IMG/VR virus record: IMGVR_UViG_3300028198_000005
Coordinates: 1-55,796 of that record
Reading direction: 5' to 3' (one strand)
Source of the DNA: a virus
Taxonomy: Duplodnaviria; Caudoviricetes
Length of the DNA stretch: 55,796 nucleotides
This document shows, one piece after another, positions 11,530 through 32,268 of this stretch. The position numbers and the translations under genes were made by a program. Numbering within the stretch: the stretch's first letter is position 1; the number at the start of each line of letters is the position of its first letter. A model generated the notes under the pieces. That model was not told the origin of the DNA. It saw nothing but the letters and a program-made list of their open reading frames with translations, and ran no database searches.

Positions 11530-11542
11530 CGATGGACCTTAG

Positions 11543-11833: not shown

Positions 11834-11843
11834 GATTAAATAC

Positions 11844-11867
11844 CCCCCACCCCTTGCGGGGTGGGGG
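11844..11867 (-). terminator. strong GC hairpin downstream of the DUF932-like gene
   Basis: CCCCCACCCC-TTGC-GGGGTGGGGG perfect 10-bp stem; weak U-tract. Confidence 0.5.
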
Positions 11868-11881
11868 TGTGATGTGTTCCC

Positions 11882-12790: not shown

Positions 12791-12944
12791 AACAGTTGTT
12801 TCAAGTCCTTCCTCAGGACGCACTAATCATCTCATATTTTTGGAATCAAGTCAACCCCTTTATTGTCACTTTTTTAAAAAAATTTCTTTTATAAATCCTC
12901 AACATTGGCACGGTTCTTTCCGAAAAACCCACTTTATTGAAACT

Positions 12945-13017
12945 TAAGTCGTTGCGCTACAAGGACTTACGCGCGCCGGGGGGGCGCGGACGTAAGTCCT
13001 TAAGCGTCAATGGGTTA
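12945..13017. repeat. double-palindrome element E3 (whole-inverted form)
   Basis: TAAGTC-GTTGCGCTACAAG-GACTTA, 23-bp G-rich spacer, TAAGTC-CTTAAGCGTCAAT-GGGTTA. Confidence 0.95.
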
Positions 13018-13022
13018 GGTAT

Positions 13023-13058
13023 AAAAAAAACAACCCCTCGGCGTTGGCCAAGGGGTTG
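13023..13058 (-). terminator. rho-independent terminator
   Basis: CAACCCCT/AGGGGTTG stem with a T8 run on the minus strand. Confidence 0.7.
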
Positions 13059-13111
13059 CAGTTATGAGAGAAAACGCATTCCAAGATACGAGAATGCGTT
13101 CTCAAGAGATT

Positions 13112-13351
13112 TTAGAAAAGCCTCATGCTTTTAGCAAGCTTTTTCAAAAGGCTTTCCTTGCTTTCCAAGTAGCTCTCTACCTCTTCGCTTGTTGCGAGAC
13201 GTAGACTCTTGGCTTGCACGGAACCTTCTTCGCGCTTGTGATGTTCAGTCACTACCCGTGTGTTGCTGAACTGATTGGATATAACCCTTTCGACTCTCTT
13301 CTTTGGGACGTTGAAGTAGAGTGAACCGTTTCGTATGTCTTTGGTTTTCAT
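13112..13351 (-). CDS. hypothetical protein
   Basis: 79-aa ORF with its own TTGACT...TATACT promoter. Confidence 0.65.
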   Translation of the reverse strand: MKTKDIRNGSLYFNVPKKRVERVISNQFSNTRVVTEHHKREEGSVQAKSLRLATSEEVESYLESKESLLKKLAKSMRLF

Positions 13352-13392
13352 AACCGAGATAAGTATAGATTAAACAGGAGAAGGAGTCAAGT

Positions 13393-13671
13393 CTATTCTG
13401 AAATTGCTTGGCGTATCTTTTTCATCTTACCCTTCAAAAATGAAATAGCATCACAATTTTTGGCGTTGGTCTGCATGATGTGGCTCAGACTATATTCTAT
13501 TTTGCGCGTAAAGTCTTTGCGTAACGCATCCAACTTATCTGCATCTGCTCGCTTTATTGCGCGAGTCTTCTTGGCCGCTTTCTTCTTGTCAGCCTTCTTT
13601 ATTAAATGTTTAGTCTTCACTTTTTTTTCTCCGAATGCCTCTAGTAACTTGTCGTAATTGCTTACCTTCAT
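13393..13671 (-). CDS. Lys-rich hypothetical protein
   Basis: ATG at 13671 (MKVSNY). Confidence 0.6.
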   Translation of the reverse strand: MKVSNYDKLLEAFGEKKVKTKHLIKKADKKKAAKKTRAIKRADADKLDALRKDFTRKIEYSLSHIMQTNAKNCDAISFLKGKMKKIRQAISE

Positions 13672-13682
13672 ATTAAATAAAA

Positions 13683-14203
13683 TGGTGGCGGGAGTATTTG
13701 TGTACCCGCACCTTTTCAGTCCCCAGAAAACAAATGTTTCAGATCGACTTACTTCGGACTCACCCACGATTTTCCTCTGCCACTAGGCCGTTGTACTTCT
13801 CGCAGTCGCTACGTTACCCCTTTGGGAGGGGTTATTCCGTCACACCGAACTCTCTCCGTCGAGAGAGAAATTGATTTGAATGGCGGTCAATCAAGGGAGA
13901 AATCTCAGCCACCGGCTCCAACCCCAGTAAGCTCAGCAAAGCCCCGCTGCATCTTAATAGCAATCTGCACCATTCAAAATTAAATGAGTTGTTACCGCGC
14001 CACCAGTAAATGCACAGGTAAGTCCTGCTCCAGCGTAAGATGTCTTACCATCCCTGTCCCTAGCGCGTTTATAGCTTAAGGGCGACGGAGGCGTATTTAA
14101 ATCACCAACTCAAATTCAAAGAACAATTAAAAAGTGTCAGGGGTGATTAGCATTGCGTTCCCGCCCTAATCTTTTTTTGTTAAGTCAGCCCTGCCTGACT
14201 CGC
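13683..14203 (-). ncRNA. cluster of about four putative structured non-coding RNAs
   Basis: ORF-poor, more GC-rich 520 bp made of units each closed by terminal complementary ends; upstream TTGACA-N17-TAGACT promoter. Confidence 0.5.
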
Positions 14204-14240
14204 ATTTTATGAAAGCTCCCCTAAGGGAAAGTATAGTCTA

Positions 14241-14516
14241 TCAGCTTTCTGTTTCGCTGTCAACCTGAAAATCATCCTTTGAAGGAATTTGATTCTCTTT
14301 TAGACTCTTGCGAATGTACTCCAAAGCTACGCGCTGCTTCGCAACGGTAAGTTTGATTTGATTCAAGCTCAAGTCGTTAGCCTCTTCCAAGAAACCGAGA
14401 GCATCACCTACCATGCGAATCTCTTTAACAGCTTCGCGCTGGTTGCTGCTTCTGCGTTCGATTTCGTCTCTCCCCGCTTTAGTGCGGGCCTGTAACCAAT
14501 GTAATGGGATATCCAT
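14241..14516 (-). CDS. hypothetical protein
   Basis: 91-aa ORF, GTTATG start behind a promoter. Confidence 0.6.
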   Translation of the reverse strand: MDIPLHWLQARTKAGRDEIERRSSNQREAVKEIRMVGDALGFLEEANDLSLNQIKLTVAKQRVALEYIRKSLKENQIPSKDDFQVDSETES

Positions 14517-14529
14517 AACTTTTTATATA

Positions 14530-15123
14530 TTACTTTGTTTCTGCTTGAAGGTCAAGCAAATTTTTCATCTTATCCTTTGGGGTATAGAAAATATTGTAGT
14601 GCGGCCCGATAGCGGTCTTGTCTCGGATGATCACCCTGTCAGACTTGTGAATGGGTGTTTTCTCTACATCATCAACAAAAGTCTCATGTTTATAGGGGTT
14701 GTAATACCCTCCGCGAAAATCTTCGCTCGACTCTGGGACGCATTGCTCGCAGTAGTCGTATGGTTTGTCGCTACAGTCACAGATACTGTACTTTTCGTAT
14801 AACTCATTATCAACCTCGCGAAAGCGTTCCTTGGAAACGTCACCAATCTCATGACATTTTCCGACAATATAAGCGTGAACATTCTTACGCTTTTCCCGAA
14901 GGACTCGCTGCCGACCTGCTGGCTGAACCCGAAACTTGGCATCATGCAATTCGACACGGTGAGCATGGCAGTATAACAGTCCCGTCTCAGCATCGATCAC
15001 CGACAGGCAATCCAAGTTCAGATTAAAATAAACCTTCACACGATCCGGTGCGACTTCGATGCCGTCTACCATCTTGCGTGGCCCTGCATCCTTCCAACTA
15101 ATGAATCCTTTTCTTTCCCTCAT
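14530..15123 (-). CDS. conserved phage hypothetical protein
   Basis: VYFNL...GRQRVLREKRKNVHAY...YNPYK..TFVD motif, with a Cys-rich insertion. Confidence 0.7.
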   Translation of the reverse strand: MRERKGFISWKDAGPRKMVDGIEVAPDRVKVYFNLNLDCLSVIDAETGLLYCHAHRVELHDAKFRVQPAGRQRVLREKRKNVHAYIVGKCHEIGDVSKERFREVDNELYEKYSICDCSDKPYDYCEQCVPESSEDFRGGYYNPYKHETFVDDVEKTPIHKSDRVIIRDKTAIGPHYNIFYTPKDKMKNLLDLQAETK

Positions 15124-15192
15124 AACTTCAAATAGTATAATTCAGTTCTTCTTGAATGTCAACGATTAATTTCAACTTTTTTAAAATTAAAT

Positions 15193-15266
15193 TGGACGCG
15201 AGGGACGGAATCGAACCGTCAATTGTTCTTTTGCAGAGAACCGTCTTACCGTTTGACCACCCCGCG
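15193..15266 (-). tRNA. tRNA-Cys(GCA)
   Basis: Cloverleaf: acceptor CGCGGGG/CCTCGCG, anticodon arm GTTCT-CTGCAAA-AGAAC, T arm GACGG-TTCGATT-CCGTC, U73 and encoded CCA. Confidence 0.92.
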
Positions 15267-15416
15267 AGCACAAGAAAATAGTCTCATGCTTTCGGAAACT
15301 TGTCAACAGAAAAAAATAAGAAATAAGAAATCATTAAATAGGAAATAGGAAACGGTTAAATACTAAATAGAGGGACGTTTTATAAATATATTTTTGGAAA
15401 AATTTTATAATTTACC

Positions 15417-15489
15417 TAAGTCACTGATTACCAAGGACTTACGCGCGCCCCCTCCCCCCCGGCCTAAGTCCTTGTAGCGCAACGACTTA
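15417..15489. repeat. double-palindrome element E4
   Basis: TAAGTC-ACTGATTACCAAG-GACTTA, 23-bp C-rich spacer, TAAGTC-CTTGTAGCGCAAC-GACTTA. Confidence 0.95.
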
Positions 15490-15553
15490 CGACTTTAAAA
15501 AGACACAAAAAAAACTCACGCTTTTTAGCGTGAGTGATGAGGGTTGGCACGGT

Positions 15554-15799
15554 TTATGCCTTGCCGAAGCACGTGGGGCACGACTCGAAAATTTTGCACC
15601 AGCACACCTCCTCGACCTCGGCCATAGCCAGATCGCGCTCGCGATCCTCGCGCTCGCGTTGCGCTTGCTGGGCGGCTTCGGATTCCATAGCGGCGTCCTG
15701 CGCGGCGATGTCAGCCTCGCGCACCTCGTCGCAATGACGTTCCAATTCGAACACCTCTTCGCATGAGAGGTCGGCGTATAACGATTTCGTAAGTCCCAT
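15554..15799 (-). CDS. small acidic protein with a C-terminal Cys cluster
   Basis: GTTATG start behind a TTGACT promoter; E/D-rich; CWC...CPTC. Confidence 0.6.
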   Translation of the reverse strand: MGLTKSLYADLSCEEVFELERHCDEVREADIAAQDAAMESEAAQQAQREREDRERDLAMAEVEEVCWCKIFESCPTCFGKA

Positions 15800-15854
15800 A
15801 ACTGATTAGAGAGTAACAGATTTCCGGAAAAAGTCAACAAAAAATCTCACTTTT

Positions 15855-16070
15855 TTAATACCATTGTTTGCGGTCGGTTTCCTGATCATAGCCCGCGTGG
15901 TAGGCCTCCACCTCGGCCTTGGCCATATCCTCCACCTTGACGCGAGGAGCGTTCCCCGTGCCGTTCGGATAATGGTGGGGCTCGCTGCCCCTGCCGTAGT
16001 AACGGTCAGCGGATCCCCGATCATAGGGGCTGCCGTGCTTCGTGTCGTATTTATTCATTTCAGTCCTCAT
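15855..16070 (-). CDS. conserved small phage protein
   Basis: HGSPYDRGSADRYYGR...EAYHAGY motif. Confidence 0.7.
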   Translation of the reverse strand: MRTEMNKYDTKHGSPYDRGSADRYYGRGSEPHHYPNGTGNAPRVKVEDMAKAEVEAYHAGYDQETDRKQWY

Positions 16071-16077
16071 AATAAAA

Positions 16078-16368
16078 TTACCAATCGCAGCATCCACCGT
16101 AATCCTCGTCGGTGCCAAAACCAGCGCTCGCGAGCGCGTCCCCGTCCGCTTCTGCGTCTGAGCGGAAACCGTCCCACGGCTCATCCGTGGCATCATCGAT
16201 AGACCACACCACGACACGAGTGCCGTCCGCGAGATGCTCGACGACATCCTCGCCCGCACGTTGGGCCAAATCGATGGCATCATTCAGCGCACTGTGATCC
16301 GCGTCGCCCATGTTCTGCGTGAAACTCCGCACGACACCCTCTTCGTCAACAACTGAGTACTTCCTCAT
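16078..16368 (-). CDS. highly acidic small phage protein
   Basis: DADGDALASAGFGTDEDYG-type C-terminus; TTGACA-N17-TATACT promoter. Confidence 0.7.
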   Translation of the reverse strand: MRKYSVVDEEGVVRSFTQNMGDADHSALNDAIDLAQRAGEDVVEHLADGTRVVVWSIDDATDEPWDGFRSDAEADGDALASAGFGTDEDYGGCCDW

Positions 16369-16495
16369 AACGCAAAACAGTATACCAGAAACCGGCGAGA
16401 TGTCAACCAATAATCTCACTTTTTTTCTTTTTTTTTCTTATGATTTTTGGCACGGTTGGCACGGAAACCCTTCTTAAAACGCTTTTCTGGAAACT

Positions 16496-16568
16496 TAAGT
16501 CACTGAGTATCAGGGACTTACGCGCGCGGGGGGGCCGCGGCCGTAAGTCCTTGTGGCTTAACGACTTA
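16496..16568. repeat. double-palindrome element E5 (spacer-flipped form)
   Basis: TAAGTC-ACTGAGTATCAGG-GACTTA, 23-bp G-rich spacer, TAAGTC-CTTGTGGCTTAAC-GACTTA. Confidence 0.95.
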
Positions 16569-16701
16569 CGACGTGGTTCCTTAGCATGTTGCGTGCCAAG
16601 TCAGGGGCTTTTATCTTGTGTCGCGATTACAGTAATCGCCAGCATTATTAAAAACGCAATGGTCGATATTAAAACAGTTGGGTCAGGGACTAAGTGGAGA
16701 A

Positions 16702-16890
16702 TCATTTGTAATTTGTAAAGTTGAAGTTGAAGGTTTTCTTTTCTTTCGCCGTCAATTTCAATTCTGTATTTTCAGCTTTAGCAATTACAGTTTCCCTTAA
16801 TTTTTTTCTCCTTCGCGCGTCACCTTCGCAAGCTGCGCGATCGTTTAAACTTAAGCCGCTCCAAATTTCGATTGAATTTTGTTTTTCCAT
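16702..16890 (-). CDS. hypothetical protein
   Basis: 62-aa ORF in a minus-strand run. Confidence 0.5.
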   Translation of the reverse strand: MEKQNSIEIWSGLSLNDRAACEGDARRRKKLRETVIAKAENTELKLTAKEKKTFNFNFTNYK

Positions 16891-16893
16891 AAT

Positions 16894-17130
16894 TTATCTT
16901 TTCCTTTTCTTTTGTCGGTTGGTGGCTTTTGTTTTATTTGATCCGGCTGGTCTTTCAAAAACTGTATGGACATTATTGCGACATCCGTCTTTACGGCCAT
17001 TGGAATCTGTTCCTTGGCTGCCCCAACTCCTTTTACCGCCGCTAGAACTATACAACATTTCTTGGTGGGCTTCTAGTCCTCCTAGCGGCATATGTCCGAG
17101 ATCGCCCATGTGTCGTTTTTCGTTTTTCAT
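16894..17130 (-). CDS. hypothetical protein
   Basis: Coupled to the upstream ORF. Confidence 0.5.
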   Translation of the reverse strand: MKNEKRHMGDLGHMPLGGLEAHQEMLYSSSGGKRSWGSQGTDSNGRKDGCRNNVHTVFERPAGSNKTKATNRQKKRKR

Positions 17131-17390
17131 GCGCGCCCTCCGTGTATGGCTTGCGCCATGTTAATAAGGTTGACGGCCTTGACCATACGATCCCAGCGGA
17201 AACGTCGAGTCTGGCCGGTTGGGCCTTGGTTGTCGTGGATCTCGACCGTTACCCCAGAAAAGGTTTCCCCCTCGGTAGTGTTGCGGAAGTGGTCAACGAT
17301 TACCCCAAGGTAGTTGTAAACGTGGTTGCCGTGATTTACCTCGCCCTCGTGGCGAGCCGGTTGATATTCGAACTTGTACATGTCTCTCAT
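17127..17390 (-). CDS. small protein, possible WYL/SH3-like fold
   Basis: C-terminal TRRFRWDRM; own promoter. Confidence 0.55.
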   Translation of the reverse strand: MRDMYKFEYQPARHEGEVNHGNHVYNYLGVIVDHFRNTTEGETFSGVTVEIHDNQGPTGQTRRFRWDRMVKAVNLINMAQAIHGGRA

Positions 17391-17432
17391 AACTTCAAAA
17401 AGTATAACTGATTTTTCCTTAAACGTCAACCC
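17384..17432 (-). promoter_or_regulatory. early promoter/start cassette, identical copy at 20688-20736
   Basis: GGGTTGACG-N17-TATACTTTTTGAAGTTATGAGAG, 49 bp exact duplicate. Confidence 0.85.
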
Positions 17433-17659
17433 CTAATTTGATATTTTAACCGTGGCAGCCAAGATTCTTTTTTCCATTCTAAAGCGAGCCGGTGGTTTTC
17501 CTTATTCTTTTTCCATCTCGCGATCCGAAGATCCAGCTTGAAAGCCGCGTAAAGCACTTTCTTAATCAAAAACACCTGCAACCTTACGGCCACGGCTAGC
17601 GGATGCAGAATCTTTTCAGCAATCGCAAAAACCGTTCCTTTTTCATTTTCATTTTTCAT
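17426..17659 (-). CDS. hypothetical protein
   Basis: ATG 17659 after an AGTGAG-NNN-CTCACT leader hairpin. Confidence 0.5.
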   Translation of the reverse strand: MKNENEKGTVFAIAEKILHPLAVAVRLQVFLIKKVLYAAFKLDLRIARWKKNKENHRLALEWKKESWLPRLKYQIRG

Positions 17660-17718
17660 TTTTTCAGTTTTTAGTGAGCCTCTCACTTCCTTAATCATGA
17701 AGCAATCAGGCAAAAAGG

Positions 17719-18120
17719 TCAACCCTTAAAATTAACTTTTTTAACTTTTGATTGGTCTTGCTTGTTTTTAGCTTCCCAATTAGCTATCCTTAAGCGCATC
17801 CTGTGGTTCGTCTGAAGCATTCGCATTGCAGTATTCCAACCGTGTTTCATTCCGTCAAGTAGAGCTTTTTGCTCAAGTCCATCTACTTCTCTGGTGTGCG
17901 CTTGGACACCACTTGCGGCCTTTCTGATCTTGAACCATTCTGATTTGATCAAGTCCGCTTCCGCTTGTTTGAAAATCTCCAACGGCCGCGGCTGTTTCCA
18001 TGTTTTGGCGAGTTCGGCATCCTTCAGGTCATTGGCTTCAGCGGCTTGTTTGTCAGCAGCAGCCATGTCCATTTTGGCGATCCAATTTTCATTCTTGTCT
18101 TTATTTTTCATTTTTTTCAT
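17719..18120 (-). CDS. hypothetical helical protein
   Basis: ATG 18120 after TTGACC-N17-CAGAAT and a leader hairpin. Confidence 0.6.
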   Translation of the reverse strand: MKKMKNKDKNENWIAKMDMAAADKQAAEANDLKDAELAKTWKQPRPLEIFKQAEADLIKSEWFKIRKAASGVQAHTREVDGLEQKALLDGMKHGWNTAMRMLQTNHRMRLRIANWEAKNKQDQSKVKKVNFKG

Positions 18121-18189
18121 TTCAGTGAGTCTCTCACTTCCCTTATTCTGAAGCAACCAGAGAAAAAGGTCAACCCTTAAATTTAATTT

Positions 18190-18432
18190 TTATCCGCAAG
18201 TCGGAAACAAGCGGCCCCTGTTCAATTGATCGCCGCCCCAACCGAAGGCGATTTCCTGACCGTCTCTCTCGATGATCCAAGGCCACATATTCCCATCCAA
18301 AACCTGCGCCATTTCGCAAGCGGCATCAAATGCAGAGTGGTCTTTGCCTCGTTCGTTCGTGAACTTTTTGCTGCCCACGCGGTTGGTGTCTTCGTCTCTC
18401 CAACTTAACTCGTATGTGATCTTGTCTCTCAT
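18190..18432 (-). CDS. hypothetical protein
   Basis: 80-aa ORF with its own promoter. Confidence 0.65.
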   Translation of the reverse strand: MRDKITYELSWRDEDTNRVGSKKFTNERGKDHSAFDAACEMAQVLDGNMWPWIIERDGQEIAFGWGGDQLNRGRLFPTCG

Positions 18433-18479
18433 AACTTCAAAAATTATCGTTTATTTCGCCTTAAAAGTCAACACTTATT

Positions 18480-18701
18480 TTAAAGTATATTTGGCATACG
18501 CCGCCGCGTTACTACTATCTCGGCCGCTTTCCCGATCCTCTTAAGATTAGCCTCACGCTTGAACTGCTCCCAAGTGGGGCGATCGCTTTCGGCGGTCGTC
18601 ATGTCTAGTTGCAGAGCTTTCCACTCTTTCATGTCGGCCCTTCGGAGTGCTTGAACGCGTAGGGCAAGTTGCTTGAATTGGTTGTCTGTCATGTCTCTCA
18701 T
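18480..18701 (-). CDS. hypothetical protein
   Basis: MRDMTD start behind TTGCAA-N17-GACAAT. Confidence 0.55.
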   Translation of the reverse strand: MRDMTDNQFKQLALRVQALRRADMKEWKALQLDMTTAESDRPTWEQFKREANLKRIGKAAEIVVTRRRMPNIL

Positions 18702-18744
18702 AACTGGGTTTATTGTCTCAAAAAACTGATAAGGTTGCAAGCTT

Positions 18745-18936
18745 TTATTCGCACTCGCGGCATTGGAACCAGTCGGTATCAGTCCATTGGCTGGCCTCTT
18801 CATGGCTAATGTGAAGCTCTTCATTGCATCCGCAGCAGGATACCAGTACTTTTTCGTTAGCCTTTTTGACTGCCTCTCGGCGGTTCCGGAGGTTGAAGTG
18901 TCGGCGAATTTCGGTCATTGTCATTGTGTTTTTCAT
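18745..18936 (-). CDS. Zn-finger protein, paralog of 23937-24101
   Basis: VLVSCCGCNEEL...DWFQCRECE. Confidence 0.65.
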   Translation of the reverse strand: MKNTMTMTEIRRHFNLRNRREAVKKANEKVLVSCCGCNEELHISHEEASQWTDTDWFQCRECE

Positions 18937-19101
18937 GTTGTTCTTAATCTCTCTCACTGAAAAAAGTATAGCAGAATCCGAGAAAAAGTCAACCAATAAT
19001 CTCACTTTTTTTCATTTTATTAAAGAAAGTTTTTTTTGTAATCGGGAGGGGTTGGCACGGTTCTACTTTGAAAAACGTTATTTTTTACCTTTTAAGAGTC
19101 G

Positions 19102-19174
19102 TAAGTCGTTGAAGCTTAAGGACTTACGCGCGGGGGGAGGGGGCGGCCGTAAGTCCTTGGTACTCAATGGGTTA
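19102..19174. repeat. double-palindrome element E6 (whole-inverted form)
   Basis: TAAGTC-GTTGAAGCTTAAG-GACTTA, 23-bp G-rich spacer, TAAGTC-CTTGGTACTCAAT-GGGTTA. Confidence 0.95.
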
Positions 19175-19254
19175 GGGTATAGAAAACGCCCCGCCGAGAA
19201 GAAATGAAGAAAGACCCGACGGGGCGCGCTGTTAGTTATGAGGTAACAGAAAAA

Positions 19255-19404
19255 CTATAATTTATTAAAAGTCTTTTTTAGTTTACGGCTTACTTTCAAC
19301 CGGCGCTGAACAGTATCATTGATTTCTTGTTCTGTCAATTCTTCTTTTTCGAAGTTTGGGTCTTTGCCTCTATACGGTTTAGTGTGACGGTATTCTTGTT
19401 TCAT
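19255..19404 (-). CDS. hypothetical protein (49 aa)
   Basis: MKQEYRHTKPYRGKDPNFEKEE..., read manually. Confidence 0.45.
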   Translation of the reverse strand: MKQEYRHTKPYRGKDPNFEKEELTEQEINDTVQRRLKVSRKLKKTFNKL

Positions 19405-19407
19405 AGT

Positions 19408-19737
19408 TTATAAGTACTCTTTTCTGTCTGGTTCTACATTTTTTTTGTAGTGGTCAAAGAATTTTTTTCTAGCTTGTTTCCTTAACTCTTTAAAGTATCC
19501 ATCAAAGCTCATTGAGACTTCCCACTTAGAATCCTCGCTCCAAGGCATCCCCTGTATGTCATCAACAACAATATTAACGATTTCTTCTATTGGCTTGCCC
19601 CATAGATTGCTCTCGTCTTTTACTAGAAACGATCTAGGACTGCACATCGATAACTGGCCTTCCTCTTTTTGGTTGTCCCACTTATCGCTAGCTTCTTCCC
19701 AAATTTCCTCCAAGCCTTTTTCTATTGTAGAGTTCAT
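19408..19737 (-). CDS. hypothetical protein
   Basis: 109-aa ORF. Confidence 0.6.
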   Translation of the reverse strand: MNSTIEKGLEEIWEEASDKWDNQKEEGQLSMCSPRSFLVKDESNLWGKPIEEIVNIVVDDIQGMPWSEDSKWEVSMSFDGYFKELRKQARKKFFDHYKKNVEPDRKEYL

Positions 19738-19746
19738 TATAGTTTA

Positions 19747-20208
19747 TTATAGTTTATAGAAAGCGTGTTGACCTATAACTTTGACAGGCTTTTCGCCTTT
19801 GGCCCAGTATGGTTTTTTCTTCATCCATGTGGCATGGTAGTGATTAGCAAAGCCAACGTAGTCGCGGCTTAAAAGTTTGATATTCTTTGCCAACCCCAGC
19901 GCGTACTTACCTTGCGGAACCTTCAGCAGATGTTCTAGGTCTTTTAATTGCTTACCGTTCCAGCAACTAAACTGATAGGGTTTGAGACAGATTTCGGTTG
20001 GTGTTCTCTTTCTCTCGAATGCACGTTGAGCAATGACAGCAGCCACCGCGTACATTCCCTTTTCCCCTTCTCCCCTTGCTTCGGCAAGGATAGTGATCGC
20101 AATTATTTTCGTTTCACGGGTGAATTTTGCGTTGTTATGCGTGTGCGCATAAACAGAACAAAAGATGATAGGTAGGGCTAGTAGTGTTATTATTTTTTTC
20201 ATTTTCAA
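19747..20208 (-). CDS. SleB-like cell wall hydrolase (Hydrolase_2) with signal peptide
   Basis: AEARGEGEKGMYAVA, QFSCWN, ANHYHA, PYWA and IGQHAFY motifs. Confidence 0.88.
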   Translation of the reverse strand: MKMKKIITLLALPIIFCSVYAHTHNNAKFTRETKIIAITILAEARGEGEKGMYAVAAVIAQRAFERKRTPTEICLKPYQFSCWNGKQLKDLEHLLKVPQGKYALGLAKNIKLLSRDYVGFANHYHATWMKKKPYWAKGEKPVKVIGQHAFYKL

Positions 20209-20366
20209 TATCCGTTATATGTTGTGGTTGTGCCGTACTTTTTGCGCTTGGCATCAGCGGCCTTCCTCATTGTATCATGGTAAGAGCCTTCGCTCCAGTC
20301 TGATTTTGGATAATGTCTCCAAATGTTCATTGCCGTTATTTCTTCTTTTATTATTGGTTTTTTCAT
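20205..20366 (-). CDS. hypothetical protein
   Basis: MKKPIIKEE start; coupled to the hydrolase gene. Confidence 0.45.
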   Translation of the reverse strand: MKKPIIKEEITAMNIWRHYPKSDWSEGSYHDTMRKAADAKRKKYGTTTTYNGY

Positions 20367-20370
20367 GGGT

Positions 20371-20694
20371 CTACCGATTCCGTTTTCTTTCAAGACATCT
20401 GAGGACTTTTGCTTCGGCGAGTTCATCCTCGCCAGCGATACTCCGCTCATCAATGCCGCGCTCGCGTAAACTTTTGGTTACAGACTCGTCAGATAACCAT
20501 TCAAGATCTTCGCTATGTTCGATCTCTCGGAGGGTGTCGCTGATAGTTTCGAGCCTTTGCTTGAGTTGGCCTAGTCGGAGCTGGATATGTGCCTTGTCAA
20601 CTAGGTTGGTTTGTGCAAGTATATCGACCATACCGGTGATATCCTCAATCTTGCTCGCTTCGTTTCTGATGTGTTTTTGTGTTTCAACTCTCAT
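20371..20694 (-). CDS. hypothetical coiled-coil protein
   Basis: Start lies within the duplicated promoter cassette. Confidence 0.6.
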   Translation of the reverse strand: MRVETQKHIRNEASKIEDITGMVDILAQTNLVDKAHIQLRLGQLKQRLETISDTLREIEHSEDLEWLSDESVTKSLRERGIDERSIAGEDELAEAKVLRCLERKRNR

Positions 20695-20722
20695 AACTTC
20701 AAAAAGTATAACTGATTTTTCC

Positions 20723-21037
20723 TTAAACGTCAACCCTTAAATCTAATTTTTTCAACTCTTCATTAGTCTCCGCTATTCGCTTTTGGAGGCTGTCCTTCTC
20801 GGTTTGCAGCCTTATCCTTGCGGCTTCCGAATCTGAAGTGTTGGCGAAATAATTAACGATTGTCTCGACGATAACGGTCATCGATACACCCAATCGACTG
20901 GACAGATCTTCGAGCTGCTGTTTTGTCTCCACTTTCAGCCGATAAGTAGCCATTACTCTATCGGGGATTTCTGGACTTTTCCCAACTTGGACGTTCGTTC
21001 GTTCAGCGACTGGGATTCTTTTGATTTTGGTATTCAT
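20723..21037 (-). CDS. ribbon-helix-helix (CopG/Arc-like) DNA-binding protein
   Basis: ATYRLKVETKQQLEDLSSRLGVSMTVIVETIV followed by a coiled coil. Confidence 0.65.
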   Translation of the reverse strand: MNTKIKRIPVAERTNVQVGKSPEIPDRVMATYRLKVETKQQLEDLSSRLGVSMTVIVETIVNYFANTSDSEAARIRLQTEKDSLQKRIAETNEELKKLDLRVDV

Positions 21038-21113
21038 TGTTATTTTTTTTTGCTTTAGTGAGTCTCTCACTTCCCCTAGTATGAAGCAACCAGAGAAAAA
21101 GTCAACCCCTTTA

Positions 21114-21635
21114 TTATCTTTTTGGCCGTCTCCCGTTGTCCCTATATTTGGGGCCGCGTGGGCCTTTGTATGGTTTTGGGGGTTGTGTGGGCCGTTTGCT
21201 CCAGTGAACGACGATCTCGGAAGGGTCGTAGCACTCGTTCGCGAGAACCTCGCCCAAGGTTACTTTGGCTTGGTGGTCGTCGGATAGGTGATGACGATGG
21301 CCTTCCGTCCCTTCGGGGAAGTACTCAAGGAATGACCACGCTATGCCGTCATCTAGTTTGCCGCAAGTGTCGTGGTTTAGGTAAACGTCCTGACCGTTCT
21401 CTGCCGCAAAAGCAATGGCATCAGCAAAACCGATTCTGTTTGCGGGCCAAGCCCATGTGCCGCAGTCGTAAACCGCGTAATGCGCGCCGAGTGGGACGCC
21501 GATCATCCATGCGTGACCCGAATGGTGGGAATCGGGCGGCGATGCGTATTTGCCCGATTTACACATAGGGCAACCCCTGCTGTGCTTTTCCATTGTCTCT
21601 TCGCTGTGGTCTATGTTGTCGTGTATTTCGCTCAT
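21114..21635 (-). CDS. hypothetical protein (Cys/His-rich)
   Basis: 173-aa ORF with its own promoter. Confidence 0.6.
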   Translation of the reverse strand: MSEIHDNIDHSEETMEKHSRGCPMCKSGKYASPPDSHHSGHAWMIGVPLGAHYAVYDCGTWAWPANRIGFADAIAFAAENGQDVYLNHDTCGKLDDGIAWSFLEYFPEGTEGHRHHLSDDHQAKVTLGEVLANECYDPSEIVVHWSKRPTQPPKPYKGPRGPKYRDNGRRPKR

Positions 21636-21692
21636 AACTTCAAAAAGTATAGTTTATTCGATGGTGGAAGTCAACCCTTAAAAGTCACTTTT

Positions 21693-21908
21693 TTACCATT
21701 TCACCACTCGGAACCATTCTCCGCGTACTCGCCTATTTAATGGCGTGTAGCTTGTCCACTCGTCCTGACTGATCTCTTTGACCGTTTGGACTCCGTCAAC
21801 CCAAGGCCCTTTGACCTTGACCATCTTCGGGCGACTGGCTTCAACCAACTCACGGGCGAATAACTCTTCATTTTCGAAGACCTCTTCTAGTTCGATTCTA
21901 TCCCTCAT
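21693..21908 (-). CDS. hypothetical protein
   Basis: MRDRIE start behind TTGACT...TATACT. Confidence 0.6.
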   Translation of the reverse strand: MRDRIELEEVFENEELFARELVEASRPKMVKVKGPWVDGVQTVKEISQDEWTSYTPLNRRVRGEWFRVVKW

Positions 21909-22046
21909 AACAGAAAACAGTATATCACAATCGCCGAAAAAGTCAACTTAAAAAGTCACTTTATTTCACTTTTTTTATTTTTATTTTTTGCTGTATTTGG
22001 CACCAGTTGGCACGCGTCCTGCACAAAAGTGTGATGTTTTAAAACC

Positions 22047-22119
22047 TAAGTTGTTGATTACCAAAGACTTACGCGCGCGGGGGGGCCGCGGCCGTAAGTC
22101 CTTGCGGCACAGTGACTTA
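22047..22119. repeat. double-palindrome element E7 (spacer-flipped form)
   Basis: TAAGTT-GTTGATTACCAAA-GACTTA, spacer identical to E5, TAAGTC-CTTGCGGCACAGT-GACTTA. Confidence 0.95.
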
Positions 22120-22198
22120 CGTACTAGCGGTGTTAGCATGTAGCGTGCCATGTAGCACCGATTATACTTTATTGTTTTAATTGTAATTATTAGATTAT

Positions 22199-22227
22199 AA
22201 AAAAACCCCGCCTCTTTCAAGGCGGGG
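22199..22227 (-). terminator. rho-independent terminator
   Basis: CCCCGCCT/AGGCGGGG stem with a T-run on the minus strand. Confidence 0.75.
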
Positions 22228-22301
22228 ACAAATGAATACAAGTAGATATGTTAGTTAACAACAACGGTTGACCTCCACCGTCAGGGGAAATTGTGCTGAG
22301 C

Positions 22302-22847
22302 TTAAGCCTTGGGGCCAAAGGCAATGCTGCCCTTGATCTTGCGCTTGCTTTTGCCGACCTTTTCCTTGGCCCACGTTAGCAGGCCTTTCTTGTTTAGGTC
22401 GACCATTACCGCGTTGACGCGATCCACTTCCTTCTTTGTCCAGAAGGGCGTACCCATGAACGTGGCGACGAACTTACCGGACAGGGAGTAGAACCCATCG
22501 TGGCCAGCGGCCTTGGCGTATTCTTCCTTGGCGTTCAGTAACGCCTTGACGGCCAGCCAAACGGCCCATTGCCGTGTGGTTAGCTTCACGTCCTTATGGG
22601 CGTGAGTGTACCTGCTGGACTTGACCTTAGCCTTGGCCTTAGCCTTGACTAACGATACCTTGGCCTTCGTCGTCTTGATGACGACCTTCTTCTCCCTCTT
22701 GGGGGACGTTACCGCGCTTACGGTGATGCTGCGCCCGGGGGCGTGTAGGCAATTCGCCAGAGCTAATGCGCCCTTCACGTTGCCGTTGATCAGTAACTGA
22801 CTTACCGCATTATGGATAGCGGCTGAACCTTCATTTTGCTTACTCAT
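22302..22847 (-). CDS. basic Lys/Ala-rich protein, possible C-terminal wHTH
   Basis: KAKAKAKVK tract; LTTRQWAVW...LNKKGLL; strongly GC3-biased codons. Confidence 0.65.
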   Translation of the reverse strand: MSKQNEGSAAIHNAVSQLLINGNVKGALALANCLHAPGRSITVSAVTSPKREKKVVIKTTKAKVSLVKAKAKAKVKSSRYTHAHKDVKLTTRQWAVWLAVKALLNAKEEYAKAAGHDGFYSLSGKFVATFMGTPFWTKKEVDRVNAVMVDLNKKGLLTWAKEKVGKSKRKIKGSIAFGPKA

Positions 22848-22906
22848 CTCGTTGTGTTTTTACCAAGAGGCGTTCGCCTCCATACCTCTAATGTAAGGGC
22901 TTCGAG

Positions 22907-23068
22907 CTATTCTGTCAACCCTTTTTTAAATTCTTCCGGCACCTTGTCTGGTGCTGGCTCGTCGTAGTCCATCTCGTTATCCTCCATCTTGGGCGGTGCG
23001 CCGTAGGGGAAGTTATTCGCTGCTACGAAGTATCTGCTTGTATTGTCGGTTAAGCTAAAGAATCTCAT
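22907..23068 (-). CDS. small acidic protein
   Basis: MRFFSLTD start adjacent to the upstream stop. Confidence 0.45.
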   Translation of the reverse strand: MRFFSLTDNTSRYFVAANNFPYGAPPKMEDNEMDYDEPAPDKVPEEFKKGLTE

Positions 23069-23069
23069 G

Positions 23070-23303
23070 TTATTGATTGTCGTTTGCATCTTCTTGGCAC
23101 TCATCGCAGATCGTCCCGTGATCATACTCATTGCCCCAGCTATGCACGCTGATCGTGCCTTCCCACTCGCTCTTTGCGCCGTCTTCCCTGTTGCATATGT
23201 CGCAAACCAATTGACCAAAATTTTCTTTTGGTGTTAAGCTGCTATGAATGAAGCCTGCAAAGGCCGCTCCGTATGTGTTTATTGTTTCTTTCTTGTCCCT
23301 CAT
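23070..23303 (-). CDS. small Zn-finger protein
   Basis: CDIC...CDEC; own promoter. Confidence 0.6.
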   Translation of the reverse strand: MRDKKETINTYGAAFAGFIHSSLTPKENFGQLVCDICNREDGAKSEWEGTISVHSWGNEYDHGTICDECQEDANDNQ

Positions 23304-23345
23304 AACTTCAAAAATTATCGTTTATTTCTTTGGATAAGTCAACAA

Positions 23346-23609
23346 CTATTCGCAAGAACCTTCGTAACATTCCGCGATGCTCACGACTTGGATCATCTCG
23401 CCGTTTGTCCATGTCTTACCGTGGATATCCTTTACGACTGTTTCCGCATGGAATTTGTCGATCATGTCGGCCTCGCTTGTGCCGAGCGGGAAGGTCGTGT
23501 GAATCCTGTTGAATCTGGTAAGCTCATGGCTGCCATTGTAAGCGGGGTTGCGCTCGATGTTGAACACTACGTTGAGGAATCTCTTTTTGGTTTTCATTGT
23601 ATCTCTCAT
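23346..23609 (-). CDS. hypothetical protein
   Basis: MRDTMK start behind TTGCAT...TATACT. Confidence 0.6.
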   Translation of the reverse strand: MRDTMKTKKRFLNVVFNIERNPAYNGSHELTRFNRIHTTFPLGTSEADMIDKFHAETVVKDIHGKTWTNGEMIQVVSIAECYEGSCE

Positions 23610-23665
23610 AACTGGGAAAAGTATAACAGGTTTTTCAGATAATGCAAGTAATAATCTGACTTTTT

Positions 23666-23893
23666 TCAAAAAAGTTCAATTAATTTATCGATCCTTTCCC
23701 GAAGCATTTCGGCCCTGTCGTTAGCTTCTGCCAACGCCTTGGTCAAGAATGTGTTTCCATTCTCGGCTTCCATCCAATCGCTGGACACTTTGCAGATCGA
23801 TTGAATCTCGATTAGCTCGCTGCTGATTTGTGCCTTCTCCTTGCTGATCTCCTTGACCTGCTCCAATGTCATTTCATTTACATTAACTTTCAT
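23666..23893 (-). CDS. hypothetical coiled-coil protein
   Basis: Start lies within the duplicated 55-bp promoter block. Confidence 0.6.
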   Translation of the reverse strand: MKVNVNEMTLEQVKEISKEKAQISSELIEIQSICKVSSDWMEAENGNTFLTKALAEANDRAEMLRERIDKLIELF

Positions 23894-23936
23894 AACTGGG
23901 TTTATTGTCTCAAAAAACTGATAAGGTTGCAAGCTT

Positions 23937-24101
23937 TTATTCGCATTCGTGGCATTGGAACCAGTCCAGATCATTCCAGTTTGCAGCCTCTTCTTGGCTG
24001 ATGCGAAGCTCTTCGTTGCATCCGCAGCAGGACACTAACACCTCGCTGGTAATCACTTGGCCGTTGTCGATAGGGTTCACTATTTCGTTGTTCTTATTCA
24101 T
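23937..24101 (-). CDS. Zn-finger protein, paralog of 18745-18936
   Basis: VLVSCCGCNEEL...DWFQCHECE. Confidence 0.65.
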   Translation of the reverse strand: MNKNNEIVNPIDNGQVITSEVLVSCCGCNEELRISQEEAANWNDLDWFQCHECE

Positions 24102-24316
24102 CTTATTTATTTCGTTGTTATTTCTCTCACTCACTGGGAATAGTATAGCACAACCTCCGAAAATTGCAAGCAAAAAAAGTCACTTTTTTAATCTTTTTTT
24201 AGGAGGGGGCGTGGCAGGTATCGTGCCAACATGGGCCATTTATCTGAAATATTTTGTTGTGTAATCGGTGGCGGTCGGCGGGGGGTGGGTAATTTCATTC
24301 TACCCTTTTATCCTAC

Positions 24317-24372
24317 AAATATATTTTCAAAAATACAAAACGAGAGAAGATAAAATATATTTTCAAAAATAC
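24317..24372. repeat. 20-bp direct repeat AAATATATTTTCAAAAATAC x2
   Basis: Copies at 24317 and 24353. Confidence 0.7.
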
Positions 24373-24396
24373 TGATAAGTCGCTATAATAGGATAT

Positions 24397-24621
24397 ATGA
24401 AAATGTGCACAAGCTGCCACGAGTCCAAACCTTACGATTTGTTTAGGAGACAGTCGAAAACCAAGGATGGGTACAAATATAGATGTAAAGAGTGCGATAA
24501 TTTGGCCGCTAGGGAATACTATAAGAGAAAAAAGAGTAAAATTATTGAAAACGCGAAAGAATGGCAGAAAAATAACCCGGATAAGGTAAAGGAATACAAA
24601 AAAAAGTATTATAGTAAGTAA
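24397..24621 (+). CDS. Zn-binding protein resembling the N-terminus of HNH/EndoVII-type endonucleases, without a nuclease domain
   Basis: CTSCHESK...KDGYKYRCKEC...W..NNPDK. Confidence 0.6.
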   Translation: MKMCTSCHESKPYDLFRRQSKTKDGYKYRCKECDNLAAREYYKRKKSKIIENAKEWQKNNPDKVKEYKKKYYSK

Positions 24622-24629
24622 AGACTGCC

Positions 24630-24950
24630 CTAAGGCTTATTGTACCGATTCGGCAGCTTCTTCTTAAGCCATTTTATAGATGAAACTTCGTAGCCGGAGT
24701 CTTTTACCATCTTTTTTATCTTCGAGGGATGAATTTCCACATTCCAATAATCTAGAAAGAGATTTCCCTGCTTGTAATCCATTTTAAGACTCTTGACCTT
24801 ACTGTTTTTGCTGAAGATCTTCTTAAGTCCTATGGCGCACGAGGGACAAACGAGTCCTCTGACGGCTATTTCGACATCAAAGAGTGGCGGCCGATCTTTT
24901 GCGTGAATTAAAGTCGCCGTTAAAAAAAATAATATAAAAAAACTTCTCAT
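24630..24950 (-). CDS. exported heavy-metal-associated (HMA) domain protein
   Basis: Signal peptide; VRGLVCPSCA; DSGYEV. Confidence 0.8.
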   Translation of the reverse strand: MRSFFILFFLTATLIHAKDRPPLFDVEIAVRGLVCPSCAIGLKKIFSKNSKVKSLKMDYKQGNLFLDYWNVEIHPSKIKKMVKDSGYEVSSIKWLKKKLPNRYNKP

Positions 24951-25453
24951 TTTGATTTGATTTGCCGCTGTCCAGACTGAAGGGACTCCATCCTTTTCAA
25001 AAGATAGTCTCTTTTTTCCCCTTCTTCCATTCTTCCTAGGTACTCCAAGCCTTTTTCATTTAGGGGTGCTTTTATCACAATCGTTGGAAGACCGTTCTTC
25101 TCGAAGCTAATTACCTGTTCTTTTCCGTAGGATGAGATAATGGCAGAGCTCGAAAGCACTTTTTCAAGTTCTAAGTTGTACAGCTTCTCGTTAGCTTTAA
25201 GAGAAACGAACTTATCCGGTTCCCCAGCCTTTCTGAGGATAAGATGAACCTTTTTAACTCCGTTTAATCGAGTAATGCCCGTTAGAAAAACTGTTGGAGC
25301 CGTTATATCATTAATTGGAGGGAGCACAAAGTCCGGCAGGGCTGGCTTTGAGGTTAGATCAAAAGCATTTCGGGCGCTTATTGATTTATATGGATTATCT
25401 TCGGCGAGAATAGAAACTGTAAATAGAAATATTAGTATGCTAATATTTTTCAT
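24947..25453 (-). CDS. exported protein, possibly GspC/PilP-like, host-type
   Basis: Signal peptide; NPYKSI..RNAF; LTGIT. Confidence 0.5.
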   Translation of the reverse strand: MKNISILIFLFTVSILAEDNPYKSISARNAFDLTSKPALPDFVLPPINDITAPTVFLTGITRLNGVKKVHLILRKAGEPDKFVSLKANEKLYNLELEKVLSSSAIISSYGKEQVISFEKNGLPTIVIKAPLNEKGLEYLGRMEEGEKRDYLLKRMESLQSGQRQIKSK

Positions 25454-25758
25454 TGGGTATCGTGATTGGGTTTGACCCTGATGGGTACATTTCGAGTAAA
25501 TTCCTTATAATTTTTATCTAGCTTTTCGTCTAGTTTATCGAACCTGTCATGTATGATATCTATAGCGCGAGTTAAATCATTTCTAGATGCATAGTTTTTA
25601 GGTAGTTCGATTGCCATATTTGTTATTTTTTCTGTCACGTCATCATGCTTCCTCCATAGATCATCTATACTCTGGTATGCTCTTTTGATAATTAGTGCAA
25701 CCATGAAGCCCCCAGCGGCCAAAACACCCTCGATAATATAATGTACTGAATTATCCAT
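25450..25758 (-). CDS. single-TM coiled-coil protein (holin-like or membrane)
   Basis: N-terminal TM; LPKNYASRND...RFDKLDEKLD. Confidence 0.55.
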   Translation of the reverse strand: MDNSVHYIIEGVLAAGGFMVALIIKRAYQSIDDLWRKHDDVTEKITNMAIELPKNYASRNDLTRAIDIIHDRFDKLDEKLDKNYKEFTRNVPIRVKPNHDTQ

Positions 25759-25882
25759 GTAAACATAGATATCTTACACAAATTTGGGCAATAACAACAA
25801 TCTAAATGGTAAATATCTCCCAAAATATAAAATAAAATTTAAAGTTTAGCAATTTTTACTGTAGAATTTACAAATTTGACAT

Positions 25883-25897
25883 TGGCACGAATCCTGC
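25883..25897 (+). promoter_or_regulatory. sigma54-type -24/-12 element
   Basis: TGGCACG-AATC-CTGC, 15 nt before ATG 25913. Confidence 0.55.
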
Positions 25898-25912
25898 AGT
25901 GTAGTATTTGTT

Positions 25913-26491
25913 ATGTTTATCAAAAGTATACTTAAGATAGGGTTAGTTGCTGCCACGACGTCAGCGTTAACAGTTTCAGCGCAGGTCGCTAAACCCACAC
26001 CAGCGTCGGATATATGTCCAGCCGCGCCTAAACCAGATAAACCTGAGAAGGGGAAGCCTGAGCGCGGTGGCAAGAAATTTGATCCGGCCAAAGCCAAGGA
26101 GAGGCTTAAGGCAGCTTTCGATAAACGCAGGAAAAAGCGCGGAGACGCAAAGAAGCGCGGTCACAAGGTTCATGATCGCAAAAAGGGCGACCACGAGAAA
26201 GATAGTGGGTTCGGCAAGCTCGTGAGAGACGACGCCAAGATCAAAGAGCTCAAGGACGCCTTCTCTAAGGCCGCTAAGGGGCTCAAGGGGGCTTTTGATA
26301 GAGCTGGATGGAAAGATGCCACCGACGAAGAGAAAAAGGCTCTGAGGGAGAAAATGGCAGCTTCGAGAAAAGAGTGGGCGCAGCAAATGAGAGCTCACCA
26401 AAAAGAAGTACATGCCCGCATCAAGGAAATCCGCGAGGAGTTCAAAAATAACCGCGATGAAGTTATTGATGGAAACAAACCCGGAGAATAG
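25913..26491 (+). CDS. exported, highly charged helical protein
   Basis: Signal peptide; K/E/R-rich. Confidence 0.7.
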   Translation: MFIKSILKIGLVAATTSALTVSAQVAKPTPASDICPAAPKPDKPEKGKPERGGKKFDPAKAKERLKAAFDKRRKKRGDAKKRGHKVHDRKKGDHEKDSGFGKLVRDDAKIKELKDAFSKAAKGLKGAFDRAGWKDATDEEKKALREKMAASRKEWAQQMRAHQKEVHARIKEIREEFKNNRDEVIDGNKPGE

Positions 26492-26513
26492 GCTATATAC
26501 AATATAAGTAAAT

Positions 26514-32239: not shown

Positions 32240-32268
32240 AGGTATTTACACTTAAAATAGTGTATAAT

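Follow-up and report, generated by a model that had tools for sequence, protein, structure and literature searches.

The viral record IMGVR_UViG_3300028198_000005 (Caudoviricetes; G000), judged 38% complete, was analysed over its whole 55,796 nucleotides (nt), here called the window. From 11.5 to 25.8 kb it carries small open reading frames (ORFs) on the minus strand with one sigma-70-type promoter each, and the borders between these early genes hold boxes of the sequence TGGCACG, in part completed by a second block that resembles the −12 element of sigma-54 (RpoN) promoters, and in part accompanied by a four-armed double palindrome. This motif is real, selected and family-wide: it is enriched over shuffled sequence, conserved as two blocks with a non-pairing interior, phased with the neighbouring sigma-70 promoter, biased in its orientation towards genes, and located at joints between natural variants. 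From these observations we infer a reader, and consider it rather probable that the boxes are putative docking sites of the −24/−12 type for the sigma-54 holoenzyme of the host.

A promoter scan of the window gave 43 promoter-like sites (21.8 ± 4.5 in shuffled sequence), the best of which all lie on the minus strand. The early promoter family reads GTTGAC-16/17-TATACT, with the start codon about 10 nt past the −10 hexamer; a repeated form, TTGACA-16-TATACT, is located at 16379–16406 (minus strand), and further minus-strand members of the family are found at 12854–12826, 18992–18965, 21946–21919 and 24169–24142. Upstream of every −35 hexamer lies an A-tract region that includes AAAGTGAG/C. The ORFs flanking the repeated promoter families D1, D4, D7 and D8 and the palindromic elements lie on the minus strand and encode 60–200 amino acids. 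Read in the sense of the genes, a typical border comprises a gene end, an intrinsic terminator (22227–22206), a complete box facing the genes (22150, minus strand) and the palindromic element, followed by back-facing boxes (22008 and 21998, plus strand), A-tracts, the sigma-70 promoter (21946–21919) and the next gene. Between 12826 and 24169 the minus-strand early genes are nearly leaderless (e.g., 15162–15121 and 21674–21633): some 10 nt (TTTTGAAGTT) separate the promoter from ATGAG, so that the predicted mRNA leader is about 3 nt long and without a Shine–Dalgarno sequence; the same pattern is present in two relatives of the phage (G006 and G007).

The double palindrome is composed of the arms TAAGTC..GGACTTACG, a run of G or C, and the arms CGTAAGTCC..GACTTA, and seven copies of it lie between transcription units. 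One, with TAAGTCC/GGACTTA arms round a G-run, occupies 12932–13019; the others are located at 11444–11531, 15404–15502, 16483–16570, 19089–19176 and 22034–22121, and one lies round 9329–9366. They stand directly upstream of early promoters, and their inner arms are conserved as sequence. The element family is widespread in uncultured phages and matched 48 IMG/VR loci, many with an identical four-arm architecture, and at least 11 copies were counted with a loose finder between 200 and 240 kb of the distantly related G001. An Rfam search returned only a tRNA and no known RNA family over elements or boxes.

TGGCACG itself is found 11 times in the window, as compared with 2.99 ± 1.71 in 100 dinucleotide shuffles, none of which reached 11. 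Ten of these copies fall within 12906–25889, all of them intergenic or touching a stop codon among the small minus-strand early genes; the isolated copy at 1318–1324 (plus strand), inside ORF 633–1394 and without a −12 GC, is probably a chance occurrence outside the system. The extended sigma-54 consensus reads YTGGCACGr-N3-TTGCW. The two-part form TGGCAC-N6-TGC occurs six times in the window (0.12 ± 0.33 expected from 200 shuffles, with a maximum of 2), and the strict form TGGCAC-N5-TTGC has no occurrence there. The six complete sites, i.e., those at 15545, 22008 and 25883 on the plus strand and those at 16598, 22150 and 24228 on the minus strand, have ATGC (three sites) or CTGC (three sites) as their −12 box, which means A or C at −15 and T at −14 (nTGC throughout), and in each the GG at −25/−24 and the GC at −13/−12 are exactly 10 nt apart. 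Only the −24 part is present at 12906, 16448, 16457 and 19053 and, as TGGCACC, at 21998, giving six complete and five partial boxes in 13 kb. A preliminary description of this DNA had listed the ten regional copies and noted TGC at the −12 position of six of them; all the coordinates are correct and the six sites are the same. Its assignment of the motif to sigma-54 is supported by the enrichment over shuffled background and by the spacing of the two blocks, which is conserved in relatives, as detailed below.

Starting from the left, the box TTGGCACGG at 12906–12920 (plus strand), which has a weak −12 part (TTTC), stands back to back with the early promoter 12854–12826, 51 nt from its −35 hexamer, and is aimed into the element 12932–13019. 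The complete site TGGCACG-GTTT-ATGC (15545–15559, plus strand) is antisense to ORF 15554–15799, overlaps its stop codon and adjoins both the minus-strand intrinsic terminator 15535–15514 and the inverted element 15404–15502. At 16448–16463 (plus strand), two −24 boxes (TTGGCACGG TTGGCACGG) lie in tandem 9 nt apart and without a −12 GC; their distances to the −35 of the promoter 16406–16379 are 41 and 50 nt. Opposite them, the complete minus-strand site TGGCACG-CAAC-ATGC (16584–16598) runs in early-gene sense and aims through the element 16483–16570 at that same promoter and the genes past it; its predicted +1 (about 16572) lies 4 nt ahead of the first TAAGTC arm. The −24 box TTGGCACGG at 19053–19059 (plus strand, no −12 GC) is aimed at the element 19089–19176 and lies 60 nt from the −35 of the promoter 18992–18965. 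Within 21998–22022 (plus strand), TGGCACC is followed 10 nt on by the complete TGGCACG-CGTC-CTGC, both aimed at the element 22034–22121; the −35 of the promoter 21946–21919 is 51 and 61 nt away from them. The complete site TGGCACG-CTAC-ATGC (22136–22150, minus strand), again in early-gene sense, is located directly past the terminator 22227–22206, and is followed in order by the element, the promoter and ORF 21693–21908. At 24212–24228 there is a 17-bp mini mirror pair of TGGCAGG (plus strand, 24212–24218; 42 nt from the −35 TTGCAA of the promoter 24169–24142) and the complete, early-gene-sense TGGCACG-ATAC-CTGC (minus strand, 24228–24214). The last site, TGGCACG-AATC-CTGC (plus strand; 25876–25897 together with the TTGACA hexamer at 25876–25881 that immediately precedes it), lies 16 nt from the ATG of ORF 25913–26491, the product of which has a signal-peptide-like start; the predicted +1 (about 25909) falls 4 nt before this codon. 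As a side observation, 24239–24300 (GTAATCGGTGGCGGTCGGCGGGGGGTGGG) aligns with 19016–19056 at 71% identity, which suggests a decayed box-plus-G-run module and cassettes that erode in place.

Each of the four elements with a G spacer has a plus-strand box to its left, at a gap of 32, 32, 42 and 32 nt to the first TAAGTC/TAAGTT arm, and two elements share the right flank TTAGCATGTWGCGTGCCA (16581–16598 and 22133–22150); both features had been pointed out in the preliminary description and are present as given there. The −12 C of the minus-strand sites 16598 and 22150 lies 15–16 nt before a TAAGTC arm, so that any transcript would start at the edge of the element, and with predicted starts within about 5 nt of the first arm the proposed firing of promoters across the elements is possible. 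This start-at-element layout recurs in G001 and G003: in G001/G002, TGGCAC-AGCAT-TTGCT stands 8 nt before an element and TGGCACG-ACAT-CTGC 7 nt before another, and in G003 a box is aimed into an element from 14 nt away and two sites are at promoter distance from start codons. The earlier statement that the motifs have no gene to drive is wrong for four of the six complete sites, since those at 16598, 22150 and 24228 run along the early genes and that at 25883 is near an ATG. A flanking box was recorded for only one of the 11 listed G001 elements, with a second box before a diverged copy that the finder had missed, and boxes without elements are present in G005–G007. Box and element thus occur apart and are separable modules. 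Reading the element plus TGGCACG/CGTGCCA as one long hairpin, or as a miniature inverted-repeat transposable element with terminal inverted repeats, was rejected, the flanks sharing only the 7-mer and RNA folds of these stretches giving z-scores of only −2.5 to −3.8. The suggestion that the boxes are accessory arm sites of a recombination complex gains no support either, given that the conserved unit has the geometry of a sigma-54 half-site and occurs independently of the element.

Conservation was followed in three relatives, of which G005 was found by a search with a DUF932 protein; the kinship of G005–G007 was assessed by tblastn. Their core proteins are overall 30–64% identical to those of the window (TerL 39%, portal-like protein 42%, capsid-like protein 39%), the early proteins of G005 are 43–64% identical, and in G006 PhoH and the sigma factor are 43% identical with the gene order kept; G001 and G004 are distant, with TerL identities of 27% and 23%. 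Of the 15 copies of TGGCACG in G005, 14 lie within the first 7.6 kb; no double palindromes were found in this contig. In G005–G007 the boxes form a 31-bp mirror pair, TGGCAYG-N4-nnGC-W-GCnn-N4-CRTGCCA, of which the early regions contain 30 copies (13 in the 32.9 kb of G006), always between a terminator or tRNA 3′ end and the A-tract/−35 region of the next promoter. In G006 and G007, mirror pairs are seen immediately after tRNA 3′ ends.

These 30 pairs provide 60 half-sites, in which only the positions left unfixed by the search pattern were tallied: T-27 is present in 55, G-20 in 57, G-19 in 50, G-13 in 59, C-12 in 60 and W-11 in 60. The GG-N10-GC spacing is thereby conserved in the relatives, at an information content of 1.9–2.0 bits at −13/−12 as compared with 0.6–0.9 bits at −18 to −14. 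The commonest variant has TGGCAT in place of TGGCAC (10 of 60 halves), and perfect copies of TGGCACG-N4-TTGCA also occur in the family (G007, position 10419). Orientation is biased as well, TGC being found at the −12 position of 14 of the 30 gene-facing halves versus 4 of the 30 back-facing ones; in the window, four of the six complete sites face genes. Among 43 distinct 31-bp units, the interior positions 7–12 are Watson–Crick paired in only 13–25, the arms and the central GC pairing as the pattern demands; C/T changes in one arm are uncompensated, on either strand, and the unit is not followed by a T-run, a separate terminator often preceding it. An interior that is not base-paired points to a protein site and not to a hairpin.

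The boxes are furthermore in register with the sigma-70 promoters. The distances from box end to −35 TTGAC in the window are 41, 50, 51, 51, 60 and 61 nt, and over 36 distinct cassettes, taken from the window, the three relatives and IMG/VR loci, they cluster at 30–32, 40–43, 49–52, 60–61 and 69–71 nt. In 34 of the 36 cassettes the distance modulo 10 is 9, 0, 1 or 2, with a Rayleigh R of 0.83 at a period of 10 bp as compared with 0.18 at both 8 and 12 bp, the 36 cassettes being related and not independent draws. The distance classes differ by whole helical turns, which points to a DNA-level, face-specific relation to the sigma-70 promoter or its phased A-tracts rather than to a role at the RNA level.

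Beyond the family, a scan of IMG/VR for TTGGCACG-N3-30-CGTGCCAA yielded at least 148 loci with at least 157 matches; among the matches listed, the most frequent arm spacing is 17 nt (42 matches), and 55 distinct palindromes (110 halves) have their arms 19–30 nt apart. In these 55, again among the matches listed, TTGC stands at the canonical offset in 31 of the 110 halves versus at most 3 at each of 14 other offsets, and TGC in 42 halves versus at most 9 elsewhere; TGC is present on both halves of 17 palindromes, on one half of 8 and on neither of 30. The sigma-54 half-site geometry is kept in unrelated contigs across arm spacings of 14–28 nt, and a half-site that is kept while the spacing varies fits two independent holoenzyme sites, not a fixed dimer or a stem. 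Arrays also occur: G010 has four mirror pairs within about 180 bp, and G009 has three. In G010, a complete 44-kb high-GC phage, a 600-bp intergenic region (L231, 3690–4330) contains four tandem mirror pairs of canonical TGGCACG-N4-TTGC and two other repeat families, and a final single box stands some 75 nt ahead of a gene that has a Shine–Dalgarno sequence; the layout resembles that of a complete sigma-54 control region or of an origin-like array. Across 596 Gb of bacterial genomes, the 31-bp unit turned up at 2 loci, once by chance in a coding region and once in a phage-like contig of a metagenome-assembled genome (MAG), which rules out a host repeat. That 20.9-kb contig contains five mirror pairs, and its MAG, labelled Pseudomonadales, encodes a sigma-54 DNA-binding domain (E 7.6e-67); as binning is weak evidence, this is a weak hint to a host.

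Taken together, these features would be accounted for by boxes that are built into repeated regulatory cassettes separating the small early genes. The ancestral unit would be the 31-bp mirror pair, which G005–G007 keep in the interval that separates the end of a transcription unit from the A-tract/UP region of the following promoter, and in the window it would have been joined to the TAAGTCC double palindrome as a second module. The half on the UP side would persist mostly as a −24 box in an approximately 10-bp register with the −35 hexamer, and the far-side halves (16598 and 22150, minus strand), as well as the sites at 24228 (minus) and 25883 (plus), would be complete promoters facing genes. 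The sense-facing complete sites would then most likely act as activator-dependent auxiliary promoters upstream of the sigma-70 promoters, and the back-facing halves as weaker mirror partners to which holoenzyme binds or from which short antisense or element RNAs are made. A range of −12 boxes such as that seen here is known from bacteria: according to the available text of PMC3844500, sigma-54 promoters of Salmonella include TGGCAT and the −12 boxes ATGC, CTGC, GTGC and TCGC (fdhF, hycA, astC, glmZ, glnA).

Several observations weigh against recognition by sigma-54. A palindrome of the form TGGCA-N7-TGCCA, as at 24212–24228, yields GG-N10-GC by construction. Positions −15/−14 in the relatives are mostly G/G and not T/T, and TGC is found in only 18 of the 60 halves, with 0 of 10 in G005. 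Four to five of the window boxes are entirely without a −12 GC and still occupy phased positions, which would suit a factor reading TTGGCACGG alone, and a strict 10-bp register with a sigma-70 promoter would be expected of a transcription factor or of DNA architecture more than of a promoter that acts independently. Searches for a sigma-54 DNA-binding domain in G000 (38% complete), G001 (100%), G005, G006 and G007 found none, nor was a true sigma-54 activator found: PF00158 matched G000 and G005 at P-loop level only and had no match in G001, G006 or G007. The G000 match at 8170–8301, which spans model positions 23–62 of 168, was rejected as a phage activator on this evidence, being the Walker-A region of a RuvB-like AAA+ protein (8029–9006, plus strand; a clamp loader in PHROGs) that ends in a winged helix and in which no GAFTGA-type loop was seen; its counterpart in G005 (10210–11148) is 49% identical. 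No enriched upstream repeat that could serve as an enhancer was found near the boxes; the candidate TAATCGS (TAATCGG/C), although near four boxes, is unenriched in the window (17 versus 16.2) and was set aside. As a phage activator was not found, a host activator, or none, must be assumed. Two runs from RNA libraries (X16 and X17) contain the region, with depth over 28 and 29 of 30 bins, for which DNA carry-over is possible; since their contigs show neither starts nor strand, no conclusion on transcription was drawn from them.

Several of these points would be met if the boxes were operators of a regulator, encoded by the phage or otherwise by the host, that recognises TTGGCACGG (and GC-W-GC in the pairs) and acts on the adjacent sigma-70 promoter, either as a class I activator does or as a repressor that shuts it off, with a convergent or incidental resemblance to sigma-54 promoters. 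The 10-bp phasing in 34 of 36 cassettes (R 0.83), the retention of −24-only boxes at phased window positions, the G-rich −15/−14 and the want of an activator or enhancer in our searches all suit such a regulator, and the window encodes a helix-turn-helix protein (30412–30762) as well as a sigma-70-family factor (33739–34419). We nevertheless judge this unlikely. Roughly 12 of the 14 positions of the sigma-54 consensus agree, among them Y-27, G-20, r-19 and W-11, perfect TGGCACG-N4-TTGCA copies occur in the family, and the tolerated variant is TGGCAT; moreover, the half-site is kept over arm spacings (14–28 nt, in unrelated contigs) that a fixed dimer would forbid, and its centres, 24 bp apart, are awkward for a simple dimer.

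A further explanation shares the sigma-54 reader and differs in mechanism: the holoenzyme would dock and never fire, the boxes being either decoys that titrate host sigma-54 during replication of the phage DNA or architectural, insulating complexes at the borders. According to the available portions of PMC4591121, sigma-54 holoenzyme is inactive when it binds promoters, and the majority of its E. coli sites are silent; silent docking would also agree with the searches that returned no activator or enhancer, with mirror pairs and tandem arrays (four in about 180 bp of G010, three in G009), with back-facing halves that have no gene ahead, and with the high number of copies in a genome (13 pairs in the 32.9 kb of G006). 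Against it, the gene-facing half tends to have the better −12 box, the site at 25883 and two in G003 lie at promoter distance from start codons, and −24-only boxes should bind poorly; we judge silent docking unlikely. In a more elaborate form of it, which we likewise regard as unlikely, the boxes would not be promoters at all and would serve as parking sites that capture silent closed sigma-54 holoenzyme in helical register with the sigma-70 promoter and the double palindrome, insulate the cassette borders, and, as the genome replicates, form a DNA sponge that depletes the host's stress and defence regulons of sigma-54; in many unrelated uncultured phages, mirror pairs and tandem arrays would be the same device. 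The roadblock function put forward in the preliminary description is disfavoured, in that the E. coli data, as far as given in the accessible part of PMC4591121, revealed no roadblock effect of silent sigma-54 sites on overlapping genes.

Close natural variants of the region were compared in contigs of four runs, the joints being those among the matches listed. A 911-nt insertion is located exactly at the left edge of the box at 12906 (joint 12897/12905), the joint 12928/15414 links two elements, deletions are seen at 17128/19749 and 21691/24018, and further joints fall at promoter repeats. In a variant with seven differences within 16472–16640, the minus-strand site 16598 is altered only at −15 (position 16587). 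The early region (11–26.5 kb) is hyperplastic, with joints at promoter repeats, elements and box edges, and the ends of insertions, deletions and swaps of close variants fall in cassette motifs, as in PeSL-type cassettes; the boxes may hence double as recombination homology at gene-swapping borders.

That the boxes are RNA or DNA hairpin arms (terminator, processing site or cruciform) of a PeSL-like cassette which serve mainly as such homology, with TGGCACG as no more than stem sequence, is very unlikely: the inverted arrangement in the relatives and at two window elements (16457/16598 and 22008/22150), the position between a gene end and the next promoter, the joints 12897/12905 and 12928/15414, and the role of PeSLs as composite terminator/promoter motifs mediating shuffling (available part of PMC4122927) would accord with it, but positions 7–12 pair in only 13–25 of 43 units, C-to-T arm changes are uncompensated on either strand, the unit has no T-run after it and often has a separate intrinsic terminator before it, the arm flanks in the window share nothing past TGGCACG, the loop-side GC-W-GC and the fixed GG-N10-GC are needless for a stem, and recombination homology is compatible with binding-site function and no alternative to it.

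The proposed docking by sigma-54 holoenzyme can be set beside known systems. With bacterial RpoN promoters such as those of glnA, pspA, fdhF, hycA and astC of Salmonella, as far as described in the accessible text of PMC3844500, the boxes share YTGGCACGr-N3-nTGCW with GG and GC exactly one helical turn apart, the same tolerated variants, an intergenic location and, for some, promoter distance from a start codon. Unlike these promoters, the phage boxes stand at nearly every early-cassette border, often in overlapping mirror pairs or facing back into a palindromic element, many with G at −15/−14 or without a −12 box, in 10-bp register with a neighbouring sigma-70 promoter, and with neither an enhancer nor an activator gene found.

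Among phages, a sigma-54-like promoter whose start was mapped is on record for YuA, which, without an RNA polymerase of its own, relies on host sigma-54 plus sigma-70 transcription (available text of PMC10914365) and is the published precedent; the present phage would resemble it in this. For YuA, that text gives one mapped sigma-54-like promoter region (P015), as opposed to the six complete and five partial boxes found here, which are paired or mirrored and tied to cassettes; the two phages are unrelated (TerL ≤25% identical to any cultured phage). The PeSL cassettes of T4-like phages, as described in the accessible portions of PMC4122927, are likewise short composite motifs between small ORFs of hyperplastic regions with an early sigma-70 promoter in each, and in both cases close variants differ by indels or swaps at the motifs. 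The present phage is, however, not T4-like, the non-promoter part of its cassette is a sigma-54-type box or box pair plus the four-armed double palindrome, and the box is conserved as sequence blocks, not as a terminator stem, and has no T-run; the cassette works like a PeSL, yet is not a member of that group. The silent or intragenic sigma-54 sites of E. coli resemble the present ones in having no obvious gene, in being partly antisense and in conserving only the important positions, and differ in being mostly intragenic and single (both according to the available part of PMC4591121), whereas those of the phage lie between genes, occur in repeated and mirrored copies and keep a phase relative to a second promoter. 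Our literature searches, supplements not being covered, found no report of phage sigma-54 boxes that are mirrored or linked to elements.

Transcription by sigma-54 is commonly treated as a bacterial stress or nutrient route. Its use in phages was found documented essentially for YuA alone. A widespread marine phage and its relatives place sigma-54-type boxes at nearly every early-cassette border; if host sigma-54 reads them, this would amount either to an activator-gated second early promoter system or to a deliberate capture of sigma-54, and would open a new chapter of phage–host transcription control. It would also aid host prediction, as the host must then have rpoN, and the 10-bp register with the sigma-70 promoters offers a direct, testable handle.

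The phage is frequent in metagenomes from marine sites and seawater; all or part of the region is present in 20 of the 23 sequencing runs listed, from 16 studies. A megablast search returned no near-identical cultured phage, and since TerL of G000 is at most 25% identical to that of any cultured phage, no host can be deduced from relatives. The early region contains, with its own promoter, a gene for tRNA-Cys (GCA; 15193–15266, minus strand). Accessory genes encode a SleB-type cell-wall hydrolase (19747–20208), a heavy-metal-associated domain protein (24630–24950), an ankyrin-repeat protein (27628–29175), PhoH (32260–33036) and an ERCC4-type nuclease with homing-endonuclease repeats (35506–36441). 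The sigma-70-family factor at 33739–34419 is encoded on the plus strand and was recognised by Sigma70_r2 (E 1.4e-5), its homologue in G006 being 43% identical. Directly upstream of structural genes a GTGTAATA-like motif recurs (27628, 38295, 41730, 53403 and, on the minus strand, 27133), which is a candidate late promoter used by this factor. The G+C content of 11000–26500 is 0.43–0.48, and that of its flanks is lower, at 0.34–0.42.

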